Assembly (NCBI GenBank): GCA_035326705.1
Contig: DAOLES010000001.1
Coordinates: forward strand, 116,762-180,761
Source of the DNA: Oligoflexia bacterium
GTDB lineage: Bacteria > Bdellovibrionota_G > JALEGL01
Direction: 5' to 3'
DNA: 64,000 bases
Shown here: piece after piece, positions 15,209 to 58,174 of the stretch
How positions within the stretch are numbered: position 1 is the stretch's first letter
Layout of the letters: each line of letters opens with the position of its first letter
Notes under the pieces: generated by a model
Seen by the model: the letters and a program-made list of their open reading frames with translations, nothing else
What the model was told of the DNA's origin: nothing
The model's database searches: none
Made by a program: the position numbers and the translations under genes

Positions 15209-15250
15209 ATCTATTAATCTGGAAAACTTACTTTCCACCTTGTCCTAGTA

Positions 15251-15281
15251 AAAGGGAGCTGAGAAATCAACTCCCTTTTTT
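15251..15281 (+). terminator. Rho-independent terminator candidate (8-bp AAAGGGAG/CTCCCTTT stem, 12-nt loop, T6)
   Basis: Hairpin and T-tract read from the sequence. Lies between the 14459 gene and the Pif1-like gene, abutting the latter's ATG. Confidence 0.45.
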
Positions 15282-27402: not shown

Positions 27403-27750
27403 ATGAATTTAGAGCTTTTGTCAGATCAACAAATTTTAAAAATTTTAGGTGAGCGTTTTGAGGATTACCGTAGGGTCCAACAGATGCAGGACCAAGATAT
27501 CTTTAAAAGGGGTGGCGTTAAAAAAGACGCGCTGGCAAGTTTTAAAAAAGGCAGAAATATTTCTTTACTCAATTTTATAAAAATTCTTAGAGGGGCAGGT
27601 TTGTTAAGTCATTTAGAAACAATGATTCCTGAAAATGAAAAATTTAGCCCAATCAATGAGATAGAAAATAAGTCAAAAGAACACCCGGCAAGAATACATA
27701 AAAAGAAAAATAAAAAAGAGCCTACATTTCATTGGGGAGATGAACAATGA
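27403..27750 (+). CDS. hipB: XRE-family HTH protein, putative HipB-like antitoxin
   Basis: HTH-like segment. 4-nt ATGA overlap with the downstream HipA gene. Confidence 0.5.
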   Translation: MNLELLSDQQILKILGERFEDYRRVQQMQDQDIFKRGGVKKDALASFKKGRNISLLNFIKILRGAGLLSHLETMIPENEKFSPINEIENKSKEHPARIHKKKNKKEPTFHWGDEQ

Positions 27751-29069
27751 CGCCCCCATGCAGTATTCATTTATGGGGTACAACAATAGGAGCTGTGTCC
27801 TATAAAAAAAATGATCAGAGTCTTGCACTATTTGAATATCATCCCAAGTTTTTAAATTCTAATATTCAACTGTCACCAATCTCTATGCCGCTAAGACCTG
27901 GGGTCTTTTCTTTTCCCAATATAAGTCAAAGAACATTCAAAGGTTTACCAGGTATTTTGGTAGATAGTTTGCCAGATAAATTTGGTAATCAGTTGATAGA
28001 TCAACATATGGCCAGCAAAGGTTATGCTTCAAATGAAATCAGTGCGATAGACCGTTTACTTTATGTTGGGCAACGTGGGATGGGAGCACTTGAATATCAG
28101 CCAGCTCTCAATATGAATGAAAATGATGGATATATGGGAGGCATGTTAGATTTGAATGCATTGGCAGAATTAAGCCAAGTTATATTATCCAGAGAACAAA
28201 AATTTCTACAAAAAATAAAAAACAGCAAAGACCAACAAGTGGTGTTTGATCTTCTAAGAGTTGGAACAAGTGCTGGGGGCGCTAGAGCAAAAGCTTTAGT
28301 AGCTATTCATAAAAAAAATGGAGACGTTTTACCACCCAATGTGATGAACCCACAAGACTACAGCCATTGGTTGGTTAAATTTGATGGGGTGGATAACAAT
28401 CAAGATAGAGATGGTAAAGATCCTAAAGGTATGACTGTTGTGGAGTATATCTATTCAATGATAGCCCAGAAGTGCGGTATTGATATGCCAAGATGTCAAT
28501 TGTTAGAAATACACGGGCAAAGGCATTTTTTAATAGAACGTTTTGATAGAGTTTTAAAAAATGAAAAGTTGGATAAACTGCATTACGCTTCATGGTGTGG
28601 CTTAGCACATGCCCATAGAGATGAAACACTGGCTTATAGCTATGAACAATTGGTTTTACTGATGCGTCAATTGAACTTACCACAGAGCGATATCGTTAAG
28701 CTTTTTAAGCGGGCAATGTTTAATATTATTGGTAGAAATCAAGATGATCATACTAAAAATTTTGGCTTCTTGATGGATAGAACAGGGCAGTGGTCGTTAT
28801 CACCGGCGTTTGATATGACTTACGCCTATGATCCAACAGGACAGTGGACTAAGACTCATCAAATTACACTGAATGGCAAAGGAAATGACTTTCAACAACA
28901 GGACTTATTGAGTTTTGCACAATATTGTAACCTGTCAAAACGACAAGCAAAGGATATCATACAAAATACAATAGATGCCTTTTCTCAGTTTGAAAAATTA
29001 GCTAAAGAATATGATTTGAATAAACCTTTAACAAAAACTATCAGCAGTACGTTAAGATTAAAATTATAA
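27747..29069 (+). CDS. hipA: HipA-family Ser/Thr kinase toxin (full length: HipA_N coupling domain + HipA_C)
   Basis: N-terminal GLPGILVDSLPDKFGNQL and C-terminal catalytic NQDDHTKNFGFL...SPAFDMT motifs. 440 aa. Confidence 0.85.
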   Translation: MTPPCSIHLWGTTIGAVSYKKNDQSLALFEYHPKFLNSNIQLSPISMPLRPGVFSFPNISQRTFKGLPGILVDSLPDKFGNQLIDQHMASKGYASNEISAIDRLLYVGQRGMGALEYQPALNMNENDGYMGGMLDLNALAELSQVILSREQKFLQKIKNSKDQQVVFDLLRVGTSAGGARAKALVAIHKKNGDVLPPNVMNPQDYSHWLVKFDGVDNNQDRDGKDPKGMTVVEYIYSMIAQKCGIDMPRCQLLEIHGQRHFLIERFDRVLKNEKLDKLHYASWCGLAHAHRDETLAYSYEQLVLLMRQLNLPQSDIVKLFKRAMFNIIGRNQDDHTKNFGFLMDRTGQWSLSPAFDMTYAYDPTGQWTKTHQITLNGKGNDFQQQDLLSFAQYCNLSKRQAKDIIQNTIDAFSQFEKLAKEYDLNKPLTKTISSTLRLKL

Positions 29070-36533: not shown

Positions 36534-37823
36534 ATGTTGTATAACTTAGTGTCTTTATTGGGTATAGTCGGTATTATTGGTATCGCATGGTTGATGTCAA
36601 ACAATAAAAAAGCATTTCCATGGCGTCAAGTTCTGTGGGGATTAGGCTTACAATTTCTCATTGCCATTTTTGTTTTTGTTTTGCCTGTAGGTAAAACTTT
36701 ATTTCTTTGGATGAATGATTTAGCGGTGACTTTAATTGGATACGCTACAGAGGGCGGAAAATTTGTTTTTGGTGGTTTGGCAACCCGTAGTATGGCTACT
36801 AAAGAAGGTGCTGCGCCTGGATCAGATTTTGTGTTTGCCTTTGAAGTTCTGACAACGGTTATTTTCTTTTCCTCATTGATTGGTGTTCTTTATTATATAA
36901 AAGTTATGCAAGTACTGGTTAAAGCTTTTGCTTGGGTGATGCAAAAAACCATGAAAGTATCAGGTGCTGAAGCTTTGACAGCGTCGGCCAATATTTTCTT
37001 TGGCCAGTCTGAAGCCCCTATTGCAGTAAAACCTTATATTCCTAAGATGACTCAATCAGAAATCATGTCCATGATGACAGGTGGATTTGCTACCGTTGCT
37101 GGCGGTGTTATGGCAGCGTATATTGGAATGCTACATGAGGTGTTTCCAAACATTGCAGGACATTTGATTTCTGCATCGGTTTTATCTGCTCCAGCAGCAT
37201 TGATGCTAGCCAAGGTAGTTTTTCCTGAAACTGAAAAACCCTTAACTCAAGGTGAAGTTGCTATGAATGTAGAAACTGAAGATGTGAATGTTTTGGATGC
37301 AGCGGCTACAGGAGCTGCCTCTGGATTACACTTAGCTTTAAACATTGGCGCCATGTTGATAGCTTTTATGGCTTTATTGGCTATGATTAATGCCATTATT
37401 GGTTACTTTGGCTCTATGCTAGGCATTGATAGTTTAAGTTTGCAAAAAATCTTGGGTTGGACGCATTACCCTATTGCTTTGATGATGGGGGTTTATCCTC
37501 AGGATGCCATGACCGTAGCAACGCTTCTAGGAGAGAAGTTGATCTTAACAGAATTTGTGGGTTACTTAAACTTGACTCATATTTTAAAGGAAGGTGTGAT
37601 TCAATTGCATCCTAGGTCAGTTGTGATTGTAACCTATGGCTTATGTGGCTTTGCTAACTTTGCTTCCATCGCGATTCAAATTGGCGGTATAAGAGCAATT
37701 GCCCCTAGTAGATCTTCTGACTTAGCTAAGTTAGGTTTAAAAGCGATGTTTACTGGGGCACTGGCAGCCTATTTAACTGGAAATATTGCTGGGATCTTTT
37801 TTTCTGGTAATACTATTTTATAG
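36534..37823 (+). CDS. nupC: Concentrative nucleoside transporter NupC family
   Basis: CNT family length and topology. Nucleoside_tran N and C regions (…GGFATVAGGVMAAYIGM…). Confidence 0.85.
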   Translation: MLYNLVSLLGIVGIIGIAWLMSNNKKAFPWRQVLWGLGLQFLIAIFVFVLPVGKTLFLWMNDLAVTLIGYATEGGKFVFGGLATRSMATKEGAAPGSDFVFAFEVLTTVIFFSSLIGVLYYIKVMQVLVKAFAWVMQKTMKVSGAEALTASANIFFGQSEAPIAVKPYIPKMTQSEIMSMMTGGFATVAGGVMAAYIGMLHEVFPNIAGHLISASVLSAPAALMLAKVVFPETEKPLTQGEVAMNVETEDVNVLDAAATGAASGLHLALNIGAMLIAFMALLAMINAIIGYFGSMLGIDSLSLQKILGWTHYPIALMMGVYPQDAMTVATLLGEKLILTEFVGYLNLTHILKEGVIQLHPRSVVIVTYGLCGFANFASIAIQIGGIRAIAPSRSSDLAKLGLKAMFTGALAAYLTGNIAGIFFSGNTIL

Positions 37824-37855
37824 AATCATGAGCTGATTAAAAGCACGACTCTCAT

Positions 37856-37893
37856 AAAAAAAGCCTATGCAGTTTTCAGTGCATAGGCTTTTT
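37856..37893. terminator. Bidirectional rho-independent terminator (A7-AGCCTATGCA-GTTTTCAG-TGCATAGGCT-T4/5), copy 1
   Basis: 10-bp perfect stem, 8-nt loop, A-tract 5' and T-tract 3'. Lies between convergent nupC and deaminase genes. Confidence 0.75.
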
Positions 37894-37923
37894 ATTGATG
37901 ATAACGTTAACTATTCAGCTTTA

Positions 37924-38742
37924 CTAATTTGATCCAAGCTTGGCATCAATTTCCTCACGAGTTGTAGAAAATATTTTTTCACTGAGGTTTATAAGATCTT
38001 TATCATCCGTTGAGAGTTGCTTAAAACTAAGATTTTGACCGCCAGCAATCCATTGCCATACAAATGGGTTGTATTTGAATTTTTCGCCAATCGCCATGGC
38101 ACCAGCATTTGAGGTTTTTTGAAGGGAATCTTTCCCTAAGAACTCATTTTGAACCAGATCACCATCTATGGCGGATGAAATAGATAGATTTGCTTTAGCA
38201 TTGATAATCATCACCATACACATGGGACAAGGCTCTAAAGTTCCATAAACGTAATAGCCATCTTTACTAAATTGTTGAGTGCCTTTGTTTGTATTGACAG
38301 GGTAACTGGTAACAGGCTCAACTAGGTTAGATCGAGCTATGTTTTCTTCACTCATTTCAAGATTGTATTGGTTTTTGCCATTATTTAAGTAATGTTTATA
38401 GGCAACTGCATCTTCTAAAGCTCTTGCTTCGGCATGGTCAGTTATACCAGGGCCTGTTACCATTGCGTTACGTCCGGGAAACTCATAAATAACACCATCA
38501 TTAACTAAAAGTACAAGGGCACCAATACCGTAGTTACCTTCATTAAAGGCCGCTAAAGCTGAAGCCAATGCTTTTCTTGCGTAGTAAGCATGTTGCCCAA
38601 TTTGATAAGTATTTATTGTTTTTGCTAAGTAACGCTCAACTTGATTAGCTATATGTACATCGTCAGTATTGGTTTGAGCAATAGCAGATTGATGACTGAA
38701 AATTAGAAAACAAATGCTAAATAATAAAGATAGTTTTTTCAT
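37924..38742 (-). CDS. Secreted (Sec signal peptide) cytidine/deoxycytidylate-deaminase-fold zinc enzyme
   Basis: Signal peptide MKKLSLLFSICFLIFSHQSAIA. HAE (…DHAEARALE…) and PCxxC (…EPCPMCM…) CDA-fold zinc motifs. GGGGG RBS 8 nt upstream of the chosen ATG. Confidence 0.65.
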   Translation of the reverse strand: MKKLSLLFSICFLIFSHQSAIAQTNTDDVHIANQVERYLAKTINTYQIGQHAYYARKALASALAAFNEGNYGIGALVLLVNDGVIYEFPGRNAMVTGPGITDHAEARALEDAVAYKHYLNNGKNQYNLEMSEENIARSNLVEPVTSYPVNTNKGTQQFSKDGYYVYGTLEPCPMCMVMIINAKANLSISSAIDGDLVQNEFLGKDSLQKTSNAGAMAIGEKFKYNPFVWQWIAGGQNLSFKQLSTDDKDLINLSEKIFSTTREEIDAKLGSN

Positions 38743-38860
38743 TGTAAACCCCCAATTCAATTATGGTTATATTGAAGTCTTAATAGCAGGTTATATGTGA
38801 TGCTTCAAATGAAAATGATTAAAAATTAGCTCTAGGTTGTGTTTTAAAGGCTTACAATAT

Positions 38861-39727
38861 ATGTCAGCCAACATGATTGATGTAGAAATATTGAGAGCAA
38901 AAATAAAGACTGCAGTGGAATATTTATCAGATGCTAATGTAGCGAATATAAAAGCAAAATATCTCATTGTTTTGGGTTCTGGGCTCAGTGAAGCGATTGA
39001 TGATTGGGAAATGATTCATGCATTTGCATATAAAGAAATTCCCGGGTTTCCTGAACATATAATAGAGGGGCACAAAGGTGAAGTGAGGCTTTATAAAATT
39101 AATGGTAGTGATGACTATGCCTGGGTATTAACTGGAAGATTTCATAGTTATCAAGGTTATGACCCTGCTGAGTGTGCTATACCTATTAGAGTTGCTGCTG
39201 GATTAGGGGTGAGCCATGTTATTCTTACTTGTGCAGCTGGAGGAATTAATGAAAACTACAATCCAGGCGATATTATGTTCTTAAATGATCATATCAATAG
39301 TACTGGAATGAGTCCATTTAGAGGGCCAAATTTGGATGAGTTTGGACCAAGATTTTTAGATCTAACAGAAGTTTATGATGATGCTTTTTTACAAGACTTA
39401 AAAAGAGCTGCAAAACAAGCAGATATTTTTACCCAAGAAGGTGTTTATGTTTGGCACTGGGGCCCAGAGTACGAGACACCTGCAGAGATAAAGCGTTGGG
39501 CAATTTTAGGTGCAGATGCAATTGGAATGTCTATGGTTCCTGAAGCTATGGTGGCAAGACATCATCAGCTAAAAGTGGCAGGTATTGCTTGTATCAGCAA
39601 TAAAGCGGCAGGTATGTCAGAAAAAGGAAGAAAAGGTAAGCTTGACCATAAAGAAGTATTAGAGGTTGGTCAGCAAAGCAGCCAAAAGCTCAAAAATATT
39701 TTAAATCAGTATTTTCAAAAAAATTAA
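38861..39727 (+). CDS. Purine nucleoside phosphorylase, PNP/MTAP family 2
   Basis: GSGLS…GRFHSYQGY…LTCAAGGIN…GDIMFLNDHIN motifs of PNP-I/MTAP enzymes. ATG at 38861 preferred over the track's TTG at 38837. Confidence 0.75.
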   Translation: MSANMIDVEILRAKIKTAVEYLSDANVANIKAKYLIVLGSGLSEAIDDWEMIHAFAYKEIPGFPEHIIEGHKGEVRLYKINGSDDYAWVLTGRFHSYQGYDPAECAIPIRVAAGLGVSHVILTCAAGGINENYNPGDIMFLNDHINSTGMSPFRGPNLDEFGPRFLDLTEVYDDAFLQDLKRAAKQADIFTQEGVYVWHWGPEYETPAEIKRWAILGADAIGMSMVPEAMVARHHQLKVAGIACISNKAAGMSEKGRKGKLDHKEVLEVGQQSSQKLKNILNQYFQKN

Positions 39728-39734
39728 GAGGTAG

Positions 39735-40289
39735 ATGACTATGTTAGATTATCCAAAAGATTACTTTTTACCTGCACTTATTAGCCAAGAACAACTAAAA
39801 AAGAAAATACATGAATTAGGACAGCAAATTACAAGAGACTATCAAGATAAAGAGATTTTATGTATTGGTGTTTTAAACGGAGCAGTTCAATTTTTAGTGC
39901 ATTTAATTGAAGAAATTAAATTACCGCTTAATATAGATTTTATATCAGTCTCAAGTTATGGCGACTCAACTGAATCAAGTGGAAAACTATCGTGGCGTCT
40001 TAACTTATTGCAAGATATTAGCAATAAACATGTGATTATTGTTGAGGATATTATTGATACCGGCATTACATTGCATGAGGTTAAAAAAGAGTTTTTAAAG
40101 CAAAATCCAAAGTCATTAAAGATAGCGTCACTGTTCTCTAAACCTTCGAGACGAGAAATAGATGTAGATATAGATTATCTTGGGTTTGAAATTGAAAATC
40201 ATTATGTTGTCGGCTTTGGCTTTGATTATCAAGGCTATTACAGAAACTTACCGCACGTAGCAATCCTGCCTGAAGACAGGTACAAATAA
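39735..40289 (+). CDS. hpt: Hypoxanthine-guanine phosphoribosyltransferase
   Basis: PRPP-binding motif VIIVEDIIDTGIT. 184 aa. Confidence 0.9.
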   Translation: MTMLDYPKDYFLPALISQEQLKKKIHELGQQITRDYQDKEILCIGVLNGAVQFLVHLIEEIKLPLNIDFISVSSYGDSTESSGKLSWRLNLLQDISNKHVIIVEDIIDTGITLHEVKKEFLKQNPKSLKIASLFSKPSRREIDVDIDYLGFEIENHYVVGFGFDYQGYYRNLPHVAILPEDRYK

Positions 40290-40330
40290 TAATTATAGAT
40301 TAATGATTAATCATAACTTTTTCATGTAAT

Positions 40331-40369
40331 AAAAAAAGCCTATGCAGTTTTCAGTGCATAGGCTTTTTT
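40331..40369. terminator. Bidirectional rho-independent terminator, copy 2 (identical 38-nt core to 37856-37893)
   Basis: Same AGCCTATGCA/TGCATAGGCT hairpin with flanking A- and T-tracts. Lies between convergent hpt and rpsD. Confidence 0.75.
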
Positions 40370-40391: not shown

Positions 40392-41012
40392 TTATTTAAC
40401 CAATCTAGAATAATACTCGATGACCATTGGAATTTCCACTACAAATGGAAAGTCTTCTCTACCCGGTGTTGAGGTTAAGGTTGCTGTCATGTTTGCATCA
40501 TCATAACGTGACCATTCTGGGTGGTTGCCAGTTGCTTTGCGTTCTTCAACTTCAGACTGAACAAAAATCATTTTTTTACCTTTTTCAGTCAAAGATATTT
40601 CTTCACCTTGTTTGGTTTGGTAAGAGGCAACATCTACACGTTTACCATTGACTAAGATTTTACCATGAGCTACCAATTGACGAGCAGCTGCAATTGAAGG
40701 AGCAAAACCAACGCAATATACAACGTTGTCTAAACGTCTTTCTAAAATATCTAACAAGTTTTTACCAGGATCACCTTTTTTACGGAAAGACTGAGAAACA
40801 GCTCTTCTTAATTGTCTTTCACCTAAACCGTAGTTGTAACGTACTTTTTGCTTTTCAATTAGCTGTGTACCATATACACTTTTCTTTTTCCGTTTATCAC
40901 CATGTTGTCCTGGTGGGTAAGGGCGACGCTCTGGTCTTTTTCTTGATAGACCGGGCAAATCTGCACCCAGTGCACGCATAACTTTCAATCTTGGTCCTGT
41001 ATATCTTGCCAT
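40392..41012 (-). CDS. rpsD: 30S ribosomal protein S4
   Basis: MARYTGPRLK…S4 domain. 206 aa. Confidence 0.95.
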   Translation of the reverse strand: MARYTGPRLKVMRALGADLPGLSRKRPERRPYPPGQHGDKRKKKSVYGTQLIEKQKVRYNYGLGERQLRRAVSQSFRKKGDPGKNLLDILERRLDNVVYCVGFAPSIAAARQLVAHGKILVNGKRVDVASYQTKQGEEISLTEKGKKMIFVQSEVEERKATGNHPEWSRYDDANMTATLTSTPGREDFPFVVEIPMVIEYYSRLVK

Positions 41013-41140
41013 TTAAGTTTCCTTATACATGAGCTTTTTGCTCGTAAAATCAGTAATTTATATTCAATAATGTATCCCAAAAATCTATTTGGAAGTAGTC
41101 GTAGATATCATGTTGAGAGCCATTGTCAAGCCTGATAAGA

Positions 41141-55899: not shown

Positions 55900-58174
55900 G
55901 CGATTTCGTTTAAAAAAAAATAATCGAATAAAGAAAAGCAAGGTTCATACTTTTAAGTGGACCTTGCTTTTTATTTTTTTAGTTGGTGTATTAGGTGTTT
56001 TTATTCAGACCTACCTATCTCTTCGTCTGATTGTTAATAAATTTTCAAAACCACTACAATGGGAAATTAGTTCACAAGTCTATTCTGATGAAAGCGTAAT
56101 TTATTCTGGGGAGTATTTTAAAAAAGATTATATTACGGAATATCTTAAGCTTTTATCTTACAAAGAAGTAAAACAGCAAAAAGATATTGCACATGCACGT
56201 TTTTATGAAAATAAGACAACCAATTCTGTCCTTGTGTACTTTCATCAACCGAAGAAGAAAATAGTATTCAAATTCAATGATAAACAATTTTTAGATAGCA
56301 TTGTTGATGTCAGTCAGAGTTTAGAAAAAGAATTAAATCATATTGAGCTGCCTAGAGTATTATTAGGTGAGTTTTATGGTGATAAGAGAGAGAAACGAAC
56401 TATTTTAGAGTTTGGTGAGTTTCCAGAAACCTTAAAGCGATCTATTATAGCAATGGAGGACAGAAGTTTTTATAGTCATCATGGAGTAAGTATTAAAGGT
56501 GTATTGAGAGCTTTGATTACCAATATTACTAAAAAATCATATGCACAGGGTGGAAGTACTCTAACTCAACAGCTTATGAAAAACTTTTTTTTAAGTCATA
56601 AAAAGACTCTTTGGAGAAAATGGAAAGAATTGGTTTTAGCTTTAATCGTTGATAAAATGTACAGTAAAGAAAAAATTTTTCAAATGTACCTTAATGAAAT
56701 TTATTTAGGTCAAGTAGGTACGGTTTCTATTCATGGTTTTGAAGAAGCATCACAGCTTTATTTTCATGATAGTGTAAAAAATTTATCTATATCTCAACAA
56801 GCAATGTTAGTAGGACTAATAAGTTCTCCAGGGAGGTATTCACCATTTAATAATTTTGAACGTTCATTGAGTCGTAGAGATTTAGTTTTAAAAAAAATAT
56901 TTGATGAAAAAATTATAAACCAAAAACAGTACATTAATGCTAGAGATGAAAAAATATACTTAGCTAAAAAGAGAGAAGTTTTTGAGCAGAGTTTATCATT
57001 AAAAAATAGTGTTTTATATGAATTAAATGAACATTTTTCTGAATTAGATTTAAAAGAAAATGGTTATAAAGTATTCACATCAATTGATCCTATTTTTCAA
57101 AAAAGTCTTAGAATTCAAAGTCAAAAAATATATAAAGAGATATTAACCCAACAAAAATTCAATAGTGAAGATTTACAAATGGGTGCAATTAGCATTAATC
57201 CTACTTCAGGCGCAATAAAAGCAGTATTAACAGGGGGAGGAAATCAAAATCAATACAATCATGTATATCAAATGAGAAGGCCTATTGGGTCCTTAATTAA
57301 GCCTTTAATTTTAGCCTATATGGTAGAAAAATATAAAAATGATTCTGAAAAGTATATTTCTAATACTCGTTTACTTAATGATAAAAAGACAACAATCAAA
57401 TATGATGAAAAAGAGTGGCAACCTAAAAACTATGCCAATCAATATTTTGGAAAAGTTAGTTTAAGAACTGTAGTTGAAAAATCTTTGAACTCAGGTTTTT
57501 TAGATTTAATACAGCAGTATTCTTTTGAAGATATTTATGCAATGGCCAAACAATATGGCTTTACTGGATACCAAGAAGTTCCAGCTTTAGCATTAGGTGC
57601 ATTAGAGTCTAACCCATATCAAATGGCCGGACTATATAGTATGTTTGTAAACTCTGGGTCAGCATTAACACCGAGTTTAGTGCAAAAAGTTACAAATGAA
57701 GCGGAATCAATACAGTCAAGACAGTTAAAAAGTAAAAAGTTTATTTCAGAAGAGGTTGCTTACCAAATTTTAAGCTTAATGCAAGGTGTGTTAAAAGACG
57801 GTACAGGTAAGAGTTCAAAAGCATATAATTTAAAATACAGCTATGCTGGAAAAACTGGAACCAGTAATGACAATAGAGATGCTTGGTTTATAGGTTTATC
57901 AAAGGATTTGATTACAGTTGTATGGTTTGGATTAGAAGGAGATCACAAGAGTAGTTTGACTGGGGCAAATTCAGCATTGCAGATATGGCTCAATTATATT
58001 AAAAAAATAGAAACCTATGTAAGAAGTGAGTCGTTTAAGCCGGCAGAAAAAATAAAAATAAAAAAAATAGATAAAGAAAAAGCATGTAGATGGAGTTTAT
58101 TTAAAAGTAAACGTAATAATTTTGAAGAAGTTTTTTTATCAAATTATTCAATCAGGAGATGTAGCAATGAATAA
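55865..58174 (+). CDS. Class A penicillin-binding protein (GT51 transglycosylase + transpeptidase), PBP1A-like
   Basis: N-terminal TM. GT51 motifs (EDRSFYSHHGV, GGSTLTQQL). TP motifs SLIKP (SxxK), SLNS (SxN), KTGT. Confidence 0.85.
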   Translation: MLMNKKIRKQNKRFRLKKNNRIKKSKVHTFKWTLLFIFLVGVLGVFIQTYLSLRLIVNKFSKPLQWEISSQVYSDESVIYSGEYFKKDYITEYLKLLSYKEVKQQKDIAHARFYENKTTNSVLVYFHQPKKKIVFKFNDKQFLDSIVDVSQSLEKELNHIELPRVLLGEFYGDKREKRTILEFGEFPETLKRSIIAMEDRSFYSHHGVSIKGVLRALITNITKKSYAQGGSTLTQQLMKNFFLSHKKTLWRKWKELVLALIVDKMYSKEKIFQMYLNEIYLGQVGTVSIHGFEEASQLYFHDSVKNLSISQQAMLVGLISSPGRYSPFNNFERSLSRRDLVLKKIFDEKIINQKQYINARDEKIYLAKKREVFEQSLSLKNSVLYELNEHFSELDLKENGYKVFTSIDPIFQKSLRIQSQKIYKEILTQQKFNSEDLQMGAISINPTSGAIKAVLTGGGNQNQYNHVYQMRRPIGSLIKPLILAYMVEKYKNDSEKYISNTRLLNDKKTTIKYDEKEWQPKNYANQYFGKVSLRTVVEKSLNSGFLDLIQQYSFEDIYAMAKQYGFTGYQEVPALALGALESNPYQMAGLYSMFVNSGSALTPSLVQKVTNEAESIQSRQLKSKKFISEEVAYQILSLMQGVLKDGTGKSSKAYNLKYSYAGKTGTSNDNRDAWFIGLSKDLITVVWFGLEGDHKSSLTGANSALQIWLNYIKKIETYVRSESFKPAEKIKIKKIDKEKACRWSLFKSKRNNFEEVFLSNYSIRRCSNE

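Follow-up and report, generated by a model that had tools for sequence, protein, structure and literature searches.

Terminators that are common to convergent genes, and hence have to work in both directions, are the closest described counterparts of the element considered here. Constraint on such terminators is stronger, and they change by way of compensatory switches (PMC5381666). A second body of work concerns the mutations that arise in hairpins. One documented source of mutations is template switching at imperfect inverted repeats, which is reported both to create hairpins and to maintain them (PMC7202029, PMC8794818). In the classical quasipalindrome cases, one arm of a hairpin serves as the template for its other arm. 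Small extragenic palindromes also occur as repeat families of the REP/BIME, Correia and DUS/USS types, which number tens to thousands of copies, have characteristic core words that are over-represented throughout the genome and often come with a cognate transposase (RAYT). Palindromic dispersed repeats of this kind often serve as terminators too. Finally, the attC sites of integron cassettes are imperfect and longer palindromes with extrahelical bases, found beside an integrase and attI.

The locus described here belongs to an uncultured member of the Oligoflexia (Bdellovibrionota) and was analysed within a 64-kb stretch of DNA, referred to below as the window. An earlier note, made from the letters of the window, had reported an identical 38-nt hairpin at two convergent gene junctions 2.4 kb apart. 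The 38-mer in question, AAAAAAAGCCTATGCAGTTTTCAGTGCATAGGCTTTTT, indeed has exactly two exact matches in the window, at 37856-37893 and at 40331-40368, and none of 100 dinucleotide-preserving shuffles matched it, even with three mismatches allowed. The note had placed the first copy correctly, while its end point for the second copy, 40369, is off by one base. The 38 nt match exactly, but the full identity is two bases longer. An AT is shared on the left as well, so that the exact direct repeat comprises 40 nt, and the two copies are spaced 2475 nt from start to start. The identity ends abruptly; beyond the 40 nt, the sequences next to copy 1 and copy 2 are unrelated (5-40% identical when compared without gaps).

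The genes around the repeats had been labelled nupC, deaminase, PNP, hpt and rpsD in the note, and profile and domain matches bear these labels out (Table 1). Both junctions, nupC/deaminase (J1) and hpt/rpsD (J2), are convergent. The nupC product has the Pfam domains Nucleos_tra2_N, Gate and Nucleos_tra2_C. The translated deaminase gene contains HAE and PCxxC motifs, preceded by an N-terminal segment that resembles a signal peptide, and has a weak match to TadA.

Table 1. Genes, repeat copies and hairpins at the two convergent junctions (positions in the window)
Feature	Coordinates	Strand	Remarks
nupC, NupC/NupG-family nucleoside transporter	36534..37823	+	TIGR00804, E = 3e-127, just below curated cut-off; 3' end faces copy 1
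Repeat copy 1 (J1, nupC -> <- deaminase)	37854..37893	.	Predicted bidirectional intrinsic terminator
Copy 1 hairpin	37858-37893	.	14-bp perfect stem; loop GTTTTCAG at 37872-37879
CMP/dCMP-type zinc deaminase gene	37924..38742	-	PF00383; 3' end faces copy 1
Purine-nucleoside phosphorylase (PNP) gene	38861..39727	+	NF006054, E = 3e-88, above cut-off; first of PNP-hpt pair
hpt, hypoxanthine phosphoribosyltransferase	39735..40289	+	TIGR01203, E = 1e-58, above cut-off; 3' end faces copy 2
Repeat copy 2 (J2, hpt -> <- rpsD)	40329..40368	.	Predicted bidirectional intrinsic terminator
Copy 2 hairpin	40332-40369	.	15-bp perfect stem; loop GTTTTCAG
rpsD, ribosomal protein S4, standing alone	40392..41012	-	NF003717, E = 5e-70; 3' end faces copy 2

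In both copies, the stem is built from a 9-bp core, GCCTATGCA/TGCATAGGC, which is extended by A:T pairs and closed by the 8-nt loop GTTTTCAG. The 8-nt loop had been recognized in the earlier note; the 10-bp perfect stem described there corresponds to the core and one A:T pair, and the perfect stem is in fact 14-15 bp long. On the plus strand, copy 1 has an A7 tract upstream and a T5 tract downstream, and copy 2 has tracts of A7 and T6; read on the minus strand, both copies have a T7 tract. The first Ts of the T-tract can also pair with the A-tract. As RNA, the 38-mer folds with -18.8 to -19.9 kcal/mol on either strand, and 71-nt contexts fold on both strands with -20 to -24 kcal/mol and z-scores of -4.9 to -5.7 against shuffles. 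Both hairpins lie outside the coding sequence, just downstream of the stop codons. The hairpin of copy 1 is 35 nt away from the stop of nupC (37823) and 31 nt from that of the deaminase gene (37924), and the hairpin of copy 2 is 43 nt away from the stop of hpt (40289) and 23 nt from that of rpsD (40392).

With respect to anatomy, the two elements are the same as described bidirectional intrinsic terminators. The stem-loop is perfect, stable and contains GC pairs, a U-tract follows directly 3' of the stem, and the position is 23-43 nt past the convergent stops. With the A-tract 5' and the T-tract 3' of the hairpin, a hairpin followed by a U-run results on both strands, in agreement with the earlier note, which had taken the element for a terminator of both strands. 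Each copy is thus predicted to be a Rho-independent terminator that works both ways between its convergent genes, although termination itself is something that we infer from these features. One element would end the transcripts of nupC and of the deaminase gene, the other those of PNP-hpt and of rpsD, in each case with a hairpin and then a run of 5-7 U. What is unusual in comparison with other bidirectional terminators is that two separate ones share 40 identical nt at a distance of 2.4 kb. A simple terminator scan did not list either hairpin, probably because the A:T pairs are absorbed into the stem, so that no T-run is left after the fully extended stem. An Rfam scan of the 34-42 kb region found no family above threshold at the hairpins, where only Thr_leader look-alikes scored, with 23-27 bits against a gathering score of 55.

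The history of the two junctions can be followed in relatives. We compared the lineage of the window (A) with species B (SRR24874944), species C (GCA_022763185.1) and species E (a TARA contig). A and B are sisters with 81-87% nucleotide identity, and C is an outgroup at 76-78%. The gene order nupC/deaminase/PNP/hpt/rpsD is kept in B and C, at 77-87% nucleotide identity. All four, A, B, C and E, have an orthologous hairpin at J2. It reads AAAAAAAAGCCTATGCA[AAA]TGCATAGGCTTTTTTT in C, GCCTATGCA[ATGT]TGCATAGGC in E, and GCCCATGCAATTGCATGGGC in B, where the stem has undergone a compensatory change from T:A to C:G. The J2 hairpins of the relatives are predicted to be stable (-20 to -21 kcal/mol), and their loops are short, with 2-4 nt in each of B, C and E. 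J2 resembles the terminators of Bacillus cereus, being conserved at an orthologous junction with a compensatory stem change (PMC5381666). At J1, species B has a related yet distinct hairpin in the same place, GCCTATGT[TAATAAC]ACATAGGC. Species C lacks a comparable hairpin in its J1 spacer of 186 nt, where the fold z-scores are -1.1 and -0.7. Judged by this comparison, the J2 terminator is old, because the relatives carry the same stem in the same place, and the J1 terminator is younger, because the outgroup lacks it and the hairpin of the sister species is related but not the same. In comparison with B, C and E, lineage A alone has the 8-nt loop GTTTTCAG and the AT prefix, and has them at both sites.

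The identity of the two copies is probably best explained by recent copying of a short patch between two terminators that were already similar. The loop GTTTTCAG is restricted to lineage A and present at both of its sites, which excludes identity by descent or by conservation, and indicates that sequence moved between the sites after A had split from B. An identity of 40 nt with an abrupt end and unrelated flanks is also what is expected of a short conversion patch. The earlier note had offered a recent duplication of the element as one of its explanations, and the lineage-specific 8-nt loop at both sites favours such recent copying over chance or conservation. In mechanistic terms, a tract of at most 40 nt of one terminator would have been copied over the other within lineage A, leaving behind an exact 40-nt direct repeat. 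Ectopic gene conversion or a replication template switch would be the likely route, and it may have been primed by the approximately 12-13 nt that were already common to both hairpins on each side (AAAAAAGCCTATG / CATAGGCTTTTT). However, 12-13 nt of homology per side are less than RecA-dependent recombination usually needs, according to the MEPS values for E. coli, and the route of copying is therefore uncertain. What we infer about the route, and about the direction of copying, which may have been from J1 to J2 or from J2 to J1, comes from the comparison of sequences.

Short-patch copying would place the locus close to template switching in quasipalindromes. The reports on that process likewise deal with the one-step replacement of a short tract within an inverted repeat, with perfect stems and unchanged flanks as the outcome (PMC7202029, PMC8794818). 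In contrast to the classical cases, the template would here be a hairpin 2.4 kb away, with the loop in direct orientation, as far as can be concluded by comparison. As two-way terminators in uncultured Oligoflexia, the elements are standard and of little import for biology at large. They would nevertheless provide a clean natural example of a short patch copied between two non-allelic terminators, and bear on how perfect hairpins are made and kept by template switching or gene conversion rather than by stepwise compensatory mutation.

Alternatively, the hairpin could be a member of a set of dispersed small palindromic repeats (REP/BIME-, MITE-, Correia- or uptake-sequence-like), two copies of which happen to lie close together. 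The earlier note had leaned towards a dispersed small repeat of the REP or terminator-cassette type, and the exact identity with its sharp stop at the element edges is in line with it, as is the fact that only about 84 kb were inspected of a genome of at least 1.45 Mb (the length of the longest contig). Like the REP/BIME, Correia and DUS/USS elements, this one is a short palindrome outside genes that has more than one copy and possibly acts as a terminator. Nevertheless, we consider membership in such a set improbable. The count of the 38-mer, which the note had envisaged for the genome, was run on the approximately 84 kb and returned the two copies in the window and none further in 10-kb extensions on each side. 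The word GCCTATGCA and its complement occur in the 64 kb only inside the two hairpins, no word is over-represented in the manner of DUS/USS, and the other strong terminators of the window have unrelated stems. The J2 copy is located where the relatives have an orthologous hairpin, and so was inherited rather than inserted. Target-site duplications are lacking, as are terminal inverted repeats other than the stem itself, and no transposase is found among the annotated genes around the block.

In the JGI metagenome and viral collections, nothing matched the exact 26-nt core GCCTATGCAGTTTTCAGTGCATAGGC. A scan of GTDB, with one genome per species and the pattern AAGCCTATGCA-N4-12-TGCATAGGCTT, yielded 40 stretches with one copy each in unrelated taxa (Clostridia, Bacillales, Sphingobacteriia, Shewanella and others). 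Two genomes gave two stretches each, on separate contigs. The source species was not among the matches, and species C, with its 3-nt loop, was missed on account of the minimum gap of 4. In such a scan, the stem motif is seen to behave as a common terminator shape that recurs by chance. If the two copies were the first members of a dispersed terminator-like family specific to this clade, they would be the first sighting of such a family in these uncultured Oligoflexia; if the 40-nt repeats were recombinogenic, with reversible amplification or loss of the 2.5-kb salvage block, they might permit copy-number switching of deaminase-PNP-hpt under changing purine supply. That either of these two ideas applies seems to us decidedly improbable.

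Another proposal is that deaminase, PNP and hpt form a 2.5-kb cassette that can move, be excised or be amplified, with the direct repeats as its ends, and that its insertion into a single terminator between nupC and rpsD generated the repeat. Direct repeats of 40 nt do flank a functionally coherent block of three genes, and recombination between them could in principle delete the block or amplify it in tandem. The comparison with relatives, which the earlier note had suggested as a check on its idea of an excisable or duplicated unit, went against that idea. The order of nupC, deaminase, PNP-hpt and rpsD is the same in B and C, but there the junction sequences are not identical, or J1 is without a hairpin, and the block thus predates the repeat. 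Moreover, the block is kept in every long assembly of the species. Its composition shows no anomaly, the GC content being flat at 0.31-0.39 across the block against 0.33-0.41 outside, and neither an integrase nor a transposase or recombinase gene is present in the block or beside it. A deletion variant with nupC beside rpsD was not found among assemblies that have an identical NupC or S4 protein, a point which short k=31 contigs cannot resolve. Taken as a whole, an insertion of this kind is very unlikely. An integron has some resemblance to the locus, in that attC sites are hairpin-forming sequences which bracket small groups of genes; it was rejected in view of the perfect terminator stems, the lack of an integrase nearby, the mixed gene orientation and the synteny across species.

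Selection might also have kept the two copies identical, as a common 3'-end binding site through which a protein or small RNA co-regulates nucleoside salvage and rpsD. In its favour, each of the four flanking transcripts would have the same structure at its end, and three of the genes belong to one pathway. However, in relatives with the same genes the hairpins of J1 and J2 differ, or J1 has no hairpin, and identity is thus not a conserved requirement. The absence of an Rfam family above threshold also speaks against a shared regulatory site, and selection alone, without a copying event, cannot create identical loops and tract lengths. We therefore regard such selection as highly unlikely.

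That the repeat is an artefact of assembly or binning, as might be feared for a metagenome-assembled genome, is hardly credible, given that assembly GCA_035327285.1 (L001) contains the two copies and matches the window at 100% identity over 20.5 kb, that all other long assemblies on record keep the gene order around the copies, and that three k=31 contigs of an independent sample, SRR2107182, have their ends exactly within the repeat copies, next to the unique flanks that belong there. Among the contigs of that sample, L002 joined the flank to the repeat by sequence, and L049 and L051 by the position of their ends. For assembly in general, the locus makes the point that a 40-nt repeat and a 28-nt perfect palindrome sufficed for k=31 assemblies to break precisely at the two junctions.

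The two convergent junctions, J1 between nupC and the deaminase gene and J2 between hpt and rpsD, carry the same hairpin. The 38-mer described in the earlier note is found exactly twice in the 64-kb window (37856-37893 and 40331-40368), and never in shuffles, even with 3 mismatches allowed. A repeat finder extends the identity by 2 bases to 40 nt (ATAAAAAAAGCCTATGCAGTTTTCAGTGCATAGGCTTTTT), and this pair, with a spacing of 2475 nt, is the sole substantial direct repeat in the window. Past the 40 nt the flanks are unrelated (5-40% ungapped identity, in AT-rich DNA). The gene labels proposed around both hairpins agree with the annotation, and each hairpin is flanked by the stop codons of two convergent genes, at distances of 23-43 nt.

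Features of the window discussed in the text
Feature	Position	Strand	Remark
NupC-family transporter (nupC)	36534-37823	+	
40-nt repeat copy 1	37854-37893		J1
CMP/dCMP-type deaminase	37924-38742	-	
Purine-nucleoside phosphorylase (PNP)	38861-39727	+	
Hypoxanthine phosphoribosyltransferase (hpt)	39735-40289	+	
40-nt repeat copy 2	40329-40368		J2
Ribosomal protein S4 (rpsD)	40392-41012	-	
Terminator-like hairpin with U-tract	15231-15279	+	AAAAGGGAGCTGAGAAATCAACTCCCTTTT
Terminator-like hairpin with U-tract	55930-55977	+	AAAAGCAAGGTTCATACTTTTAAGTGGACCTTGCTTTTT

The inverted repeat is perfect over 14 bp at copy 1 and 15 bp at copy 2, around an 8-nt loop (GTTTTCAG). The stem consists of a 9-bp GC-containing core (GCCTATGCA/TGCATAGGC) and otherwise of A:T pairs. 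The RNA of either strand folds with -18.8 to -19.9 kcal/mol, and the 71-nt contexts have fold z-scores of -4.9 to -5.7. As suspected, no sequence feature of a bidirectional intrinsic terminator is missing from either copy, and transcription termination is predicted at both. A simple consensus terminator scan missed both hairpins, probably because the A:T pairs are taken into the stem and no T-run follows. An Rfam scan of 34-42 kb found no family for the element, only Thr_leader look-alikes (23-27 bits versus a gathering score of 55). Elements of this kind are known already, and this one adds a newly sampled lineage and, with it, a modest evolutionary curiosity.

The origin of the identity can be traced by comparing species A, the source of the window, with four relatives. 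Species B (sample SRR24874944; L043, L044) has 81-87% and species C (GCA_022763185.1; L045) 77-78% nucleotide identity to the window. B and C share 76-78% identity, which makes A and B sisters and leaves C as the outgroup. D (L052) is close to B, and the closest relative of E, a TARA Oceans contig (L053), is C. The lineage is isolated: at 90% identity the S4 proteins of A, B and C cluster together, and the next closest ones, from Pseudobacteriovorax, Oligoflexus and metagenome contigs, are only 58-59% identical.

Junction sequences in window orientation, loops in square brackets where delimited
Species	J1	J2
A	identical 40-mer	A7-GCCTATGCA[GTTTTCAG]TGCATAGGC-T6
B	A6-GCCTATGT[TAATAAC]ACATAGGC-T7	A7-GCCCATGCAATTGCATGGGC-T6
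C	186-nt spacer, no comparable hairpin (fold z-scores -1.1 and -0.7)	A8-GCCTATGCA[AAA]TGCATAGGC-T7
D (L052)		contig ends at A9-GC
E		A6-GCCTATGCA[ATGT]TGCATAGGC-T6

The J2 stem is unchanged in A, C and E; in B, a T:A pair has become C:G, a compensatory switch. The J2 loop is 2-4 nt in B, C and E, and longer in A alone. The J2 terminator is thus orthologous and conserved throughout the clade. Terminators that convergent genes share are known to be under tighter constraint than those working one way, and to change through compensatory switches (PMC5381666); the conservation of J2 and the C:G switch in B fit this pattern. The J1 hairpin of B is stable (-15.8 to -17.4 kcal/mol), and related to that of A, yet clearly different.

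The 8-nt loop and an AT prefix are confined to lineage A, where they occur at both sites, and therefore the identity is due neither to descent from the A/B ancestor nor to conservation. The A7 tract at both A sites was also counted as a lineage-A trait; the J2 tract of B is likewise A7. The comparison points to transfer of sequence between J1 and J2 after the A/B split. The copied tract, at most 40 nt, kept its loop in direct orientation and left the flanks unaltered. The recent duplication suggested previously is right in the sense that some 40 nt were recently copied from one existing terminator to another. The two hairpins of B are still alike in their left part, AAAAAAGCC-ATG, and their right part, CAT-GGCTTTTTT; the ancestral pair therefore had a heterologous centre flanked on either side by roughly 12-13 nt of homology. 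The route of copying is inferred, and either J1 or J2 may have been the donor. The most likely routes would be short-patch ectopic gene conversion between the two terminators, or a replication template switch. In the latter case, a nascent strand would stall at one hairpin, re-anneal at the other, 2.4 kb away, copy through the loop and then return. Mutation by template switching at imperfect inverted repeats is documented, and the process has been put forward as a way in which perfect RNA hairpins arise and are kept (PMC7202029, PMC8794818). Because the J1 hairpin of B resembles J2 and C lacks one, J1 itself could perhaps have arisen by copying of J2 already in the A/B ancestor, which is only suggestive.

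A dispersed, REP-like repeat would also account for two identical copies, and is not supported. The count for the source genome is two in a sample of about 84 kb; no further copies were found in the 10-kb extensions on each side (L046, L047). The 9-mer stem word is absent from the rest of the window, and the exact 26-nt core has no match in the JGI metagenome and viral collections. The stems of the other strong terminator-like hairpins, near 15.27 kb and 55.95 kb, are unrelated to it; the hairpin near 55.95 kb has a loop of 8 nt and an A-tract as well, and could therefore act both ways. A GTDB scan (one genome per species) for the stem around any loop of 4-12 nt gave 40 stretches from unrelated organisms, with one copy each, the source species not among them. 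Therefore, AAGCCTATGCA...TGCATAGGCTT is a recurrent chance terminator shape and not a shared mobile element. Different Acutalibacteraceae species (MAGs L005, L006, L012, L022, L025, L028, L032, L039, L041) account for nine of the 40 stretches, which may represent one orthologous terminator kept in that family, unrelated to the window.

An excisable salvage unit bracketed by the repeats is contradicted by the same order and orientation of nupC, deaminase, PNP-hpt and rpsD in B and C, wider neighbourhood included, by flat GC content across the block, by the lack of a recombinase among the annotated genes around it, and by retention of the block in all long assemblies of species A. In principle, the 2.5-kb block could on rare occasions be deleted or amplified through its 40-nt direct repeats.

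The window derives from an uncultured member of the Oligoflexia, and its sequence is also present in GCA_035327285.1 (contig DAOLDQ010000005.1) and in several further assemblies, with contigs up to 1.46 Mb. An assembly artefact is ruled out by the independent sample SRR2107182, where three k=31 contigs terminate inside the repeat copies, each with the correct unique flank (joined by sequence in L002, by where the ends fall in L049 and L051). Logan k=31 contigs stop exactly at the hairpins in this sample (L002, L049, L051) and in SRR24874944 (L043, L044). In species A, the breaks are caused by the length of the repeat, 40 nt and thus more than k; the L043/L044 overlap in species B is a 28-nt perfect palindrome (AAAAGCCCATGCAATTGCATGGGCTTTT). 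Short terminators can thus fragment de Bruijn assemblies.

The N-terminus of the deaminase (MKKLSLLFSICFLIFSHQSAIAQ) resembles a signal peptide, and the protein carries zinc motifs of the HAE and PCxxC types. No NCBIfam model scores above its cut-off (TadA reaches just 26 bits), and only about 50 homologues with E <= 1e-5 are found among 5.8 billion proteins, many with the JGI label TadA. The enzyme may be exported and deaminate nucleosides or bases, acting with NupC, PNP and HPT in purine salvage. The rpsD gene is solitary beside the salvage genes, outside any ribosomal-protein operon, also in B and C. The Rfam scan of 34-42 kb had no match in its 128-nt upstream spacer (41013-41140; with rpsD 40392-41140, - strand), which could hold an S4 autoregulatory leader. 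Beside a conserved SLC12-family permease gene (window 27434-29069 versus L045 19581-20257), A has a 440-aa ORF (27747-29069) and C just a 95-aa ORF with a weak HipA-coupling domain match, possibly a toxin-antitoxin locus in which A and C differ.
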